Source of the DNA: an uncultured bacterium
GTDB taxonomy: Bacteria; Babelota; Babeliae; Babelales; Babelaceae
Direction of reading: 5' to 3'
DNA length: 64,000 nucleotides
Assembly: GCA_963706585.1 (NCBI GenBank)
Contig: OY970169.1
Coordinates: 503,086 to 567,085 of the forward strand
This document shows positions 12,947 to 15,900 of the stretch, piece by piece. A program made the translations under genes and the position numbers. The first letter of the stretch is position 1; every line of letters begins with the position of its first letter. The notes beneath the pieces were generated by a model. That model did not search any database and was not told the origin of the DNA. It worked only from the letters and a program-made list of their open reading frames with translations.

Positions 12947-15900
12947 ATGTCTAGCCTCCGTATAGGCAAAGGCTCTATTCGTCGATCTTTTGGTAAGATT
13001 AAAGACATTGTTCCGGTTCCTAACTTAATAGAGATTCAATCACGATCATTTAATGAATTTGCTCAGTTAGATTATTTGCCAGCTGAAAGGCAATTGATTG
13101 GTCTAGAAAAAGTTTTTAAAGATATTTTCCCTATCGATTATAATGATAGAATGTCGCTTGAATATGTAAGTTATGAGCTAGGAAATTGGGCATGTACATG
13201 TGGTAAACTAACTGGTATTGATAATCGCTATTCATGGAGTTGTTCCTCGTGTAAAAAATCTGATTGTTCTCGTTTAGCATGATGATCTTGACTTGTACAT
13301 TTTGTCACAAAAATACTGCTCGCTATAAAACATGTTCTAATTGTTTAGCGCGAGTTACCGTTCAACTACCTATGACCTTAGATGAATGTCGTTCAAGTGG
13401 TCAAACATTTTCTATGCCCTTAAAGGTTAAGATTACAGCTTATTAGCTGGGATGTAGATGAAGCAGGCAAGAAAAGTTCTTCGTGATATTAAAGAACAAG
13501 ATATTTTCTTTGCAGATGTTCCTGTTATGGCTGATCTCTATGAAGAGCATGGTCAATTTAAGTTAGGTAATTTAGGAACCTTCTTAATCAATGGTGTTGA
13601 TCGTGTTATTGTAAGTCAGCTTCATCGATCTCCTGGTGTTGTATTTTCTCAAAGTAAAAAAGTCAAAGATGTTCGAGGAAAGCCTTATTATATAGCTCGT
13701 ATTATTCCGATGCGTGGATCATGGATTGATTTTGAATTTGATAGCAATGATTATCTTGTATGTTCGTATTGATAAAAAGAAAAAGATTCTGGTAACTACA
13801 TTTTTACAAGCATTAGGGGTGCCACGGGATCAAATTATTCCAATATTTTATCATTTTGATACCATTGTTGCTCGAAAAAGGTGAATTTTATCAAAAGCTT
13901 GATGATAACATTCTTAGGTATTCGTATTGAAAAAGGAATGCTTCCGATTATCAAGGATGAAGATTCTTTGTGGGTAAACGAGTCACTAAAGAGCTCATTG
14001 CTCGATTAAACAAAGCAGGCATTGATAGACTCTTACTACGCAAAAGCTAGCTTATTAAATCGTGTTTTTGGCAATGATGTTATTGATCCTGAAACAGGTG
14101 AAGTTATTGTTGAACAAGGCGCTATGTTCACCGAAGAGCACTATGAGCATGCTGAACAAATTCAACAATTTATCATTTAACATTATTAGCTTCATCTGGC
14201 TATGTATTTCAACCTACTATTGCTCTTACTTTGACGCAAGATCGATGTCTATACTGAAGAAGAAGCTCTAAAAGAAATTCATGCGAAAAGTATGGCCTGG
14301 TGATAGTTCTTCATTAAAAGAAGTTAAAGAACGACTTGAAAATCTCTTTTTTAATAGTCGTTTCTACGATCTTAACTAAAGTTGGTCGAATTCGCATGAA
14401 TCGAAAACTAGGTCTTACAGGTAGATGAATGATAACCACTCTTACTAAAGAAGATATTATAGCAACTATTCAATATCTGGTTAATCTTCGTGAACGTGGT
14501 GAAGGTGAACTTGATGATATCGATCATTGGGTAATCGTCGTGTTCGTTTAGTTGGTGAATTACTTAATAATCAGATGTATCTTGGTTTATTGCGAATTGA
14601 ACGAATTGTTCGTGAACGATTTAGAATGCAAGAAACTCATGGTGCATTAATGCCACAAGATTTCTTGAATGTAAAACCCTTAAGTGCAGTGTTGCGAGAA
14701 TTTTTTGGAACTGGTCAATTATCGCAGTTTATGGATCAAACAAATCCATTGCTGAAATTGCTCATAAACGACGGCTTATCAGCTCTCGGGCCTGGTGGTG
14801 TTCTGAAAGATCGTGCAACCTATGAAATTCGTGACGTTCATACTTCTCACTATGGTCGAATTTGTCCGATTGAAACACCTGAAGGTCAAACCGTTGGTTT
14901 GATTTCTTCATTGGCAACCTATGCAATGGTCAATGATTTAGGATTTATTGAAACAGCATATCGTCCAGTTAATAGATGGCAAAATGCAAGATGAAGTAGT
15001 ATTCTTAGATGCATTTGAAGAAGGCGATAAATATATTGCTCAAGCAGATGCTAGTTGATGCGAGTAAGCATAAAATTAGAAGTGATCAAGTATTTGCTCG
15101 ACATGAAGGAAACTTTATGTATGTTGATACGGACAAGATTGATTATATTGATCTTTCTCCAAAGCAATTGGTTTCTGTTTCAACAGCATTGATTCCATTC
15201 TTAGAGCATGATGATGCAAGCGTGCGCTTATGGGTGCAAACATGCAACGTCAAGCGGTTCCGCTTATTAGAATGCAGGCTCCTATTGTAGGTACTGGCAT
15301 GGAACAAGAAATTGCTAAAGCATCAGGTGCTGTGATTATTGCAAAACGTGCTGGTGTTGTTGAATATGTTTCATCTGAAAAAATTGTTGTTCGTGTTGAT
15401 GAAGATGAATTTAGAAATATTGATGATTGGATTTCCAAGGTATTGATACTTATTATTTGCGTAAATTTCAACGTTCAAGTTATAGTACCTGGATTCATCA
15501 AACTCCTATTGTAAAGCGAGGAGATCGAGTTAAAGCAGGTGATATTCTTAACCAATGGTACTGCGATTCATAATGGTGAATTAGCCTTGGGTGCTAATTT
15601 ATTGGTTGCATTTATGCCATGGCATGGTTACAACTTTGAGGATGCTATTGTTTTAAGTAAGCGATTAGTTGCTGAAGATATCTTAACTTCAGTGCATATT
15701 GATGAATATGTTGTTGATGCTCGAGATACAAAGCTTGGGCCTGAAGAAATTACCCGAGATATTCCAAACGTGAGTGAAACAGCACTTGCAGGTCTTGATG
15801 AAGATGGTATTGTTCGAATTGGTACACGTGTCAAACCTGGTGATATTCTTGTTGGTAAAGTAACGCTTAAAGGTGATATTCAATATTCTCCTGAAGAAAA

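Follow-up and report, generated by a model that had tools for sequence, protein, structure and literature searches.

We found that rpoB in a 64,000-nucleotide stretch of contig OY970169.1 from an uncultured bacterium (the window; positions below are counted from its first letter) contains a cysteine-rich insertion in the N-terminal part of the encoded RNA polymerase (RNAP) β subunit. With a probability of roughly 0.8, we consider it a genuine, vertically inherited and lineage-specific β insertion, likely a two-zinc module resembling the zinc-binding domain (ZBD) of the β' subunit, and regard the indels that break its reading frame as likely errors. The existence and position of the insert, its conservation and cysteine pattern, a confident fold prediction and a similarity to the β' ZBD carry this view.

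Position of the insertion in rpoB

The ATG of rpoB could be read directly from the sequence at 12947 on the + strand, and tblastn with an intact Dependentiae RpoB (locus L001, 1451 aa) covered positions 12935-17301 in alternating frames. The encoded N-terminus matches the Pfam families PF04563 and PF04561 (RNA_pol_Rpb2_1 and RNA_pol_Rpb2_2) as well as RpoB chains in the PDB (E 4e-52). The gene order rplK-rplA-rplJ-rplL-rpoB-rpoC is kept, with orthologues of the L001 operon mapping from 10.2 to 21.4 kb.

12947-17305, + strand: rpoB (RNA polymerase β subunit), recognized by tblastn, Pfam and PDB matches; about 43 frameshifting indels
13187-13365, + strand: cysteine-rich insertion W81..Q139, WACTCGKLTGIDNRYSWSCSSCKKSDCSRLDDDLTCTFCHKNTARYKTCSNCLARVTVQ, missing from E. 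coli, Binatia and Desulfomonile RpoB

The ...EYVSYELGN stretch ends at 13186, W81 occupies 13187-13189, and L140-P141-M142 (LPMTLDEC...) follow from 13366. In the RpoB proteins of E. coli, Binatia and Desulfomonile the two motifs are directly joined (...LG-(E/T/Q)P-x-(F/Y)-D-V-x-EC) and the insert is absent; relative to them, W81..Q139 represents an extra stretch of 59 codons plus two bases that we take to be spurious. In the uncorrected sequence, frame 2 runs from MSSLRIGKG to EYVSYELGN and on through WACTCGKLTGIDNRYSWSCSSCKKSDCSRLA to two consecutive stops (TGA TGA), while frame 1 carries on as ...LTCTFCHKNTARYKTCSNCLARVTVQLPMTLDECRSSGQTFSMPLKVKI. The original prediction, made from the letters of the window, had reported a cysteine-rich insertion between YVSYELGN and LPMTLDEC, and both its coordinates and its two peptide strings proved right.

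The insert interrupts PF04563, the Pfam model of the protrusion domain, at a site equivalent to approximately residues 78-82 of E. coli β. This site is covered by β-uD1, which consists of residues 1-152 and later segments (PMC11515920). Because of this correspondence and the interruption of PF04563, the insert is assigned to the β1/protrusion domain and not to the β lobe, where it had initially been placed. Solved RpoB chains align with residues 6-78 and 144-283 of the protein and pass over the middle.

Conservation and distribution across lineages

The best protein and genome matches were all from Dependentiae, at 65–87% identity, which places the window in Candidatus Dependentiae (TM6/Babeliales). 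Each of the 48 intact Dependentiae rpoB loci has the insert at the identical site, with a length of 52–61 aa. A homologous insert of 65 aa is present in Acidobacteriota of several classes, where it reads ...IGNWECKCGKLxGLHHLRKPCxxCG...CPxCG...CDxCGxTVxLKLK; its carriers include Aminicenantes, Blastocatellia, Pyrinomonadaceae, Vicinamibacterales and unclassified Acidobacteriota. In turn, one Nitrospina metagenome-assembled genome (MAG) encodes a short form, WECACGEFKELGGPNIFCDTCKQEV, with the pattern CxC-x12-CxxC. A search of 1.84 billion representatives with a profile of the insert only gave 125 matches: fragments of RpoB belonging to the types above, multi-ribbon proteins without relation to them, and a fusion family of Streptomyces and Ktedonobacteraceae.

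Alignment with relatives thus revealed an equivalent insertion with a cysteine consensus, and the expectation of a lineage-restricted element with metal-binding potential was borne out by its four cysteine knuckles, the Pfam ribbon matches of the Acidobacteriota forms, the confident AlphaFold2 model and the zinc-ribbon fold neighbors, all detailed below. The claim of novelty did not hold: in the databases, the insert is present in all RpoB entries of Dependentiae and in many of Acidobacteriota, and such sequences have been publicly visible for years.

In both word-indexed protein searches, the best 120 matches were all RpoB fragments of <500 aa, and full-length RpoB of 1440 aa is present in the same clusters. 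Since several of these fragments come from contigs >1 Mb (P0008, P0009), frameshifted rpoB calls appear to be common in long-read Dependentiae assemblies.

Cysteine knuckles and predicted fold

The cysteines of the insert are arranged in four knuckles, the first with a CxC and the others with a CxxC pattern.

13193-13201, + strand: knuckle 1, C83-T-C85 (CxC), in the motif W-x-C-x-C-G-K-L-x-G
13241-13252, + strand: knuckle 2, C99-S-S-C102 (CxxC), kept at 98% and 88% in the 48 Dependentiae loci
13294-13305, + strand: knuckle 3, C116-T-F-C119 (CxxC), kept at 88% in the 48 Dependentiae loci
13333-13344, + strand: knuckle 4, C129-S-N-C132 (CxxC), followed by the return strand L-A-R-V-T-V-Q-L

Eight to nine cysteines occur per 59 residues of the insert. 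The full-length relative P0121 (1441 aa) has 11 cysteines, nine of which lie within its 62-aa insert; the binomial probability of this, at the cysteine frequency outside the insert, is 5e-16. Across the 48 Dependentiae loci, W81, C83, C85, G90, R94, Y95, W97, Y126, C129, C132 and R135 are invariant, and the four cysteines of the outer knuckles (C83, C85, C129, C132) are also invariant in 83 aligned proteins, in which C99, C102, C116 and C119 show a conservation of 90% or more. One further cysteine outside the knuckles, Cys107, is retained in 75% of the Dependentiae loci. Mean pairwise identity in these loci amounts to 62% for the insert vs. 74–77% for its flanks.

We observed that knuckle 3 is missing wherever knuckle 2 is missing. 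In several Dependentiae lineages (proteins P0033, P0038 and P0039) both middle knuckles are gone and the outer pairs retained, and some other lineages keep one remnant cysteine of the middle knuckles. This joint loss of the middle knuckles, with the outer ones kept, favors a nested arrangement, in which an outer Cys4 site would tie the ends of the insert and an inner, dispensable Cys4 site would lie at its tip. A tandem pairing of the knuckles (1+2 and 3+4) may apply instead: in Acidobacteriota inserts, knuckles 1 and 2 are separated by x12, exactly as in the β' ZBD, which speaks for the tandem order.

As for family assignment, the original prediction had proposed a search for zinc-ribbon families, and its outcome differed between lineages. 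A Pfam scan of the window's own insert returned nothing significant, whereas eight of the 23 aligned homologues, those of Acidobacteriota, match DZR (best E 1.5e-7). The Acidobacteriota inserts also match Auto_anti-p27 (E 8e-6), Zn_ribbon_3 and further ribbon families (E 1e-3 to 1e-6). When the PDB was searched with the sequence of the insert, the sole match was a weak one, to the zinc ribbon of eL43 (E 0.05).

AlphaFold2 predicted the insert with a pLDDT of 93.4 when modeled alone and 93–96 within the 298-aa N-terminus of P0001, a protein 85% identical to that of the window. The fold neighbors of the insert model are nearly all zinc-binding modules (zinc ribbons), none of the matches being significant; Rpb12/RpoP chains are found among the best of these non-significant neighbors.

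Relationship to the β' zinc-binding domain

Comparison with the N-terminal ZBD of β' was prompted by a side match in BLAST. The stretch around knuckle 1 aligns with the β' ZBD motif DWECxCGKY, and hhalign paired insert columns 2-32 with the β' ZBD at 96.2% probability (E 2.6e-9). When only six canonical ZBDs were used, the hhalign score was 34.5, compared with 12.1 ± 3.7 (maximum 24) for 200 shuffles in which the four cysteine columns were kept fixed. In ungapped comparison with the ZBD, 11 of 27 positions are identical both for the Nitrospina insert (permutation p 5e-4) and for the Acidobacteriota insert (p 1.3e-4), again with the cysteines fixed. The second half of the insert scored no higher against the β' ZBD than shuffled sequences. 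On the basis of the hhalign, shuffle and permutation results for the first half, the region of knuckle 1 and its adjoining loop seems to be either paralogous to the β' ZBD or a near mimic of it.

We propose that the insert replaces a short surface loop of β1/protrusion (E. coli β ~78–82) and forms a small two-metal cysteine module with knuckles of the CxC, CxxC, CxxC and CxxC types. The invariant first and last knuckles would most likely bind one zinc as a Cys4 site and so hold the base of the insert together; the two middle knuckles would most likely build a further Cys4 site at the tip, one that the module can lose. Since knuckle 1 and the next loop are closely related in sequence to the β' ZBD, the insert may be seen as a ZBD-like module placed in β and elaborated with an additional zinc ribbon. 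By likeness to the docking role of the β' ZBD, such a module would most likely supply the protrusion side of the cleft with a further rigid platform on which nucleic acid or a partner protein could dock. The β1 domain lies along the upstream edge of the transcription bubble and bears the docking face for Mfd and CarD; the IKE motif, which reads DIKEQ here, lies ~38 residues downstream of the insert.

A bolder version of this idea, that the insert is a transplanted copy of the β' ZBD providing the protrusion of Dependentiae, Acidobacteriota and Nitrospinota with a second zinc module for the docking of factors or nucleic acid, is in our opinion unlikely. If true, the transplanted ZBD could hard-wire a job that a separate factor does elsewhere, e.g., keeping the upstream fork junction stable or bringing in a lineage-specific regulator.

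Frameshifts in the rplK-rpoC region

The frame change within the insert belongs to a much larger zone of dense indels, which spans the ribosomal protein and RNAP genes of the window.

9900-22300, + strand: dense-indel block with secE/nusG, rplK, rplA, rplJ, rplL, rpoB, rpoC and the start of fusA, along which relatives' proteins switch frame
about 13278 and about 13287, + strand: two putatively spurious 1-base insertions, detected by DNA alignment to 10 intact relatives; they produce the TGA TGA stops

A single frameshift had been noted in the insert. The frame indeed changes there, but as the net effect of two +1 insertions ~9 nt apart, which form part of the 12-kb noisy block and whose placement near 13278 and 13287 is ambiguous by a few nt. 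With both extra bases removed, the insert reads SRLDDDLTCTFC, and the equivalent stretch in relatives reads SRLDGDLTCKFC, SRLDADFTCKFC and similar. The corrected 283-aa N-terminus aligns without gaps over 849 nt with most of the closest related loci.

Long open reading frames (ORFs) are missing from ~7.8 to 22.7 kb, and the remainder of the 64-kb window contains long intact ones. The indel density in the block is ~1 per 100 nt. In rpoB, the ~43 frameshifting indels consist of 32 of +1, three of +2 and eight of -1, and in rpoC there are 46 (33 of +1, three of +2 and 10 of -1); about three in four indels are thus +1, mostly outside homopolymers. No shared motif was found at the insertion sites, and codon phase is uniform. 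The inserted base equals a neighboring alternative allele in 72% of cases vs. 35% in the background, a difference to which alignment bias may contribute.

The corrected rpoB has a dN/dS of ~0.16 relative to its nearest relative, L049 (OY969806.1, a complete chromosome of 1.47 Mb). Damage limited to the operon was likewise seen in L049 and in L050 (CAVUQO010000002.1), both GTDB representatives from a long-read MAG series. Their rpoB genes contain ~40 indels each, mostly +1, and any two of the three genomes (window, L049 and L050) have only 5–8 indel positions in common. Among the long-read loci labeled MFD that were checked, five of eight have a broken rpoB ORF (including L011, L013 and L031), and most assemblies without this label have a full-length rpoB ORF of ~1440 aa. 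The genes of the block still show purifying selection, and for this reason we judge the indels most likely to be consensus or assembly errors rather than biology.

Several observations weigh against the interpretation as a genuine module overlaid by sequencing errors. Three in-frame stops persist after indel correction, and two conserved sequences of the window, tuf and the 3' portion of fusA, are clean. A sliding-window test of rpoB against the sampled relatives revealed no mosaic and no blocks of near-identity. Finally, judged by the alignment of PDB chains to the N-terminus, the insert occurs in no solved RNAP.

These residual stops, together with the ~90 frameshifts in rpoB and rpoC, the sharply local damage next to intact neighboring genes and the same pattern in L049 and L050, would also fit a real, decaying and pseudogenized copy of the operon, in which the insert is a relic and an intact operon resides elsewhere in the genome. 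We regard this explanation as improbable. A dN/dS of ~0.16 and a normally conserved corrected protein imply that rpoB is not an old, neutrally evolving pseudogene, and the insertion bias of 3–4:1 is contrary to the deletion bias known for bacterial pseudogenes. Moreover, the block comprises single-copy essential genes (rplKAJL and rpoBC) of a genome of ~1–1.5 Mb, and no second L049 locus appeared among the best 80 matches of a non-exhaustive scan. The largely unshared indel positions in the three genomes and the full-length rpoB ORFs of most assemblies lacking the MFD label point in the same direction. If the indels are errors, as we favor, the rplK-rpoC operon of long-read Dependentiae MAGs illustrates how dense local indel errors can mimic pseudogenes.

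Redox and mobile-element alternatives

The abundance of cysteines (eight to nine per 59 residues) and the additional conserved Cys107 (75%) outside the knuckles could also indicate an iron-sulfur cluster or a redox disulfide switch tuning transcription, e.g., in response to oxidative conditions inside an amoeba host; an intracellular life of Dependentiae, as suggested by the F-box/ankyrin effector array of the window, would agree with this. Such chemistry seems quite improbable to us, as CxC/CxxC knuckles on putative β-hairpins, Pfam ribbon matches and zinc-module fold neighbors make up the signature of structural zinc, the nearest sequence relative, the β' ZBD, binds zinc, and the module is found in free-living Acidobacteriota as well.

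The view of the segment as a foreign or mobile insertion (a mini-intein or an insertion-sequence remnant) or an assembly chimera in rpoB, to which its discrete character, its absence from model RpoBs and the frameshift with tandem stop codons in the raw sequence could be cited, is effectively refuted: the same site, motifs and approximate length recur in 48 independent Dependentiae assemblies and two other phyla, no direct or inverted repeats bound the insert, its 59 aa are far below intein size (at least ~130 aa) and include no intein junction residues, it blends into the gene in GC content and codon context, and its invariant positions indicate that the peptide it encodes is under selection. 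The small mobile insertion considered in the original prediction is thereby discarded, and presence in at least 48 independent assemblies means that the segment is not chimeric.

Related fusion proteins and other genes of the window

The Streptomyces and Ktedonobacteraceae sequences that match the insert profile are hypothetical proteins of ~1250 aa (P0158, P0178, P0184, P0210, P0211, P0218, P0219, P0233 and P0192). In them, a reduced RpoB-like part is joined to a region corresponding to the N-terminal third of RpoC (Pfam Rpb2_6 and Rpb1_1), and the RpoB-like part includes the cysteine-rich insert, at residues ~165–235. BLAST alignments between these proteins and Dependentiae RpoB reach E 1e-21 and span the insert. 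The fusion proteins stop where β' has the NADFDGD motif, without those aspartates, and they probably lack the catalytic ones. In S. chartreusis (locus L081, 8001-11759), the fusion gene begins 9 nt after a gene encoding an AAA_16/NACHT-like ATPase and adjoins a weak integrase-like gene. PADLOC gave no match for the Streptomyces fusion proteins. Their location beside STAND-type ATPases in Streptomyces hints at a polymerase-mimic sensor.

Within the window, six tandem ankyrin-repeat genes (1272-6074, - strand) encode proteins of 244–266 aa, and an F-box-like domain is present in five of the six. The proteins are candidates for eukaryote-like effectors, which are typical of amoeba-associated intracellular Dependentiae. 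The gene for the gamma subunit of ATP synthase (6152-6994) comes next after the array. An intact tuf gene (49-1233, 394 aa) does not adjoin the tRNA-secE-nusG cluster, unlike in many bacteria, but is followed by ~8 kb with minus-strand genes (the ankyrin array and atpG) before that cluster. Five tRNA genes (Tyr, Gly, Thr, Thr and Trp) are located at 9129-9900, just upstream of the noisy block, and tRNA-Val (21407-21481) lies between rpoC and fusA, the usual place of rpsL and rpsG. All six tRNAs were called intact by ARAGORN, even though tRNA-Val is positioned within the noisy zone.

Comparison with known systems

Lineage-specific RNAP inserts serve as docking sites for regulators and help to explain why polymerases behave differently among phyla. 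To our knowledge, zinc is bound only by β' in model bacteria, and a zinc module in β would be unusual. At least two entire phyla carry the insert described here as a fixed trait, and one of them, Acidobacteriota, belongs to the most abundant soil groups. We know of no polymerase structure for any insert-bearing phylum, and the insert offers a concrete structural and biochemical target.

The archaeal and eukaryotic RNAP zinc modules (Rpb12/RpoP, the C-terminal zinc site of Rpb2 and the Rpb9/TFIIS ribbons) resemble the insert in being small Cys4 ribbons that decorate a multisubunit RNAP. However, they occupy another subunit and position and show no significant sequence or fold match, and homology with them is unsupported by any test run. 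With the double zinc ribbon families DZR (PF12773), Zn_ribbon_3 (PF13248) and Auto_anti-p27 (PF06677), the insert has paired CxxC knuckles in common; it differs by the CxC of its first knuckle and by being embedded in a large enzyme, whereas members of these families are usually free-standing or terminal.

Like the known inserts of RNAP β (E. coli β-i4/SI1, β-i9/SI2 and β-i11; BBM2/BEAN), the insert is an in-frame domain in a β surface loop; it is fixed throughout some phyla and missing from others, and its conservation is lower than that of the core. BBM2 or BEAN domains of RNAP β are reportedly the subject of Lane and Darst (2010). Full-text literature searches did not find a description of the insert, with that work, which may list an Acidobacteria insert, being outside their scope. 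In comparison with BEAN/BBM2, the insert is predicted to form Cys4 zinc ribbons with no helix-strand bracket, and it comprises only ~60 aa. A 2024 survey of β/β' insertions recognized five sites in β, none of them at E. coli ~78–82; it never mentions zinc and omitted small unclassified inserts (PMC11515920). The site of our insert, in the N-terminal β1 segment (β-uD1), differs from those of β-i4, β-i9 and the others and is outside these five. We class it as a lineage-specific insert of RNAP whose site is undescribed and whose predicted fold is of a zinc-ribbon, ZBD-like type.

The closest counterpart is the β' ZBD itself. Its cysteines in E. coli are C70, C72, C85 and C88. The two have the motif [WY]-E-C-x-C-G-K-x-x-G...C-x-x-C-G in common, and the x12 spacing of the ZBD is identical in the Acidobacteriota and Nitrospina inserts, whereas the Dependentiae insert has x13 and a divergent sequence past knuckle 2. 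The long forms of the insert contain two additional knuckles. The two elements also differ in location: the ZBD, at the N-terminus of β', lines the RNA exit channel, whereas the insert belongs to the protrusion domain of the other subunit, on the opposite side of the cleft. The β' ZBD is a docking point for DNA, RNA and factors (PMC8501970), with partners that include RapA, Rho, Q, AlpA, putRNA, the coupled ribosome and upstream DNA. Its resemblance to the insert would provide a third example of a module common to β and β'.

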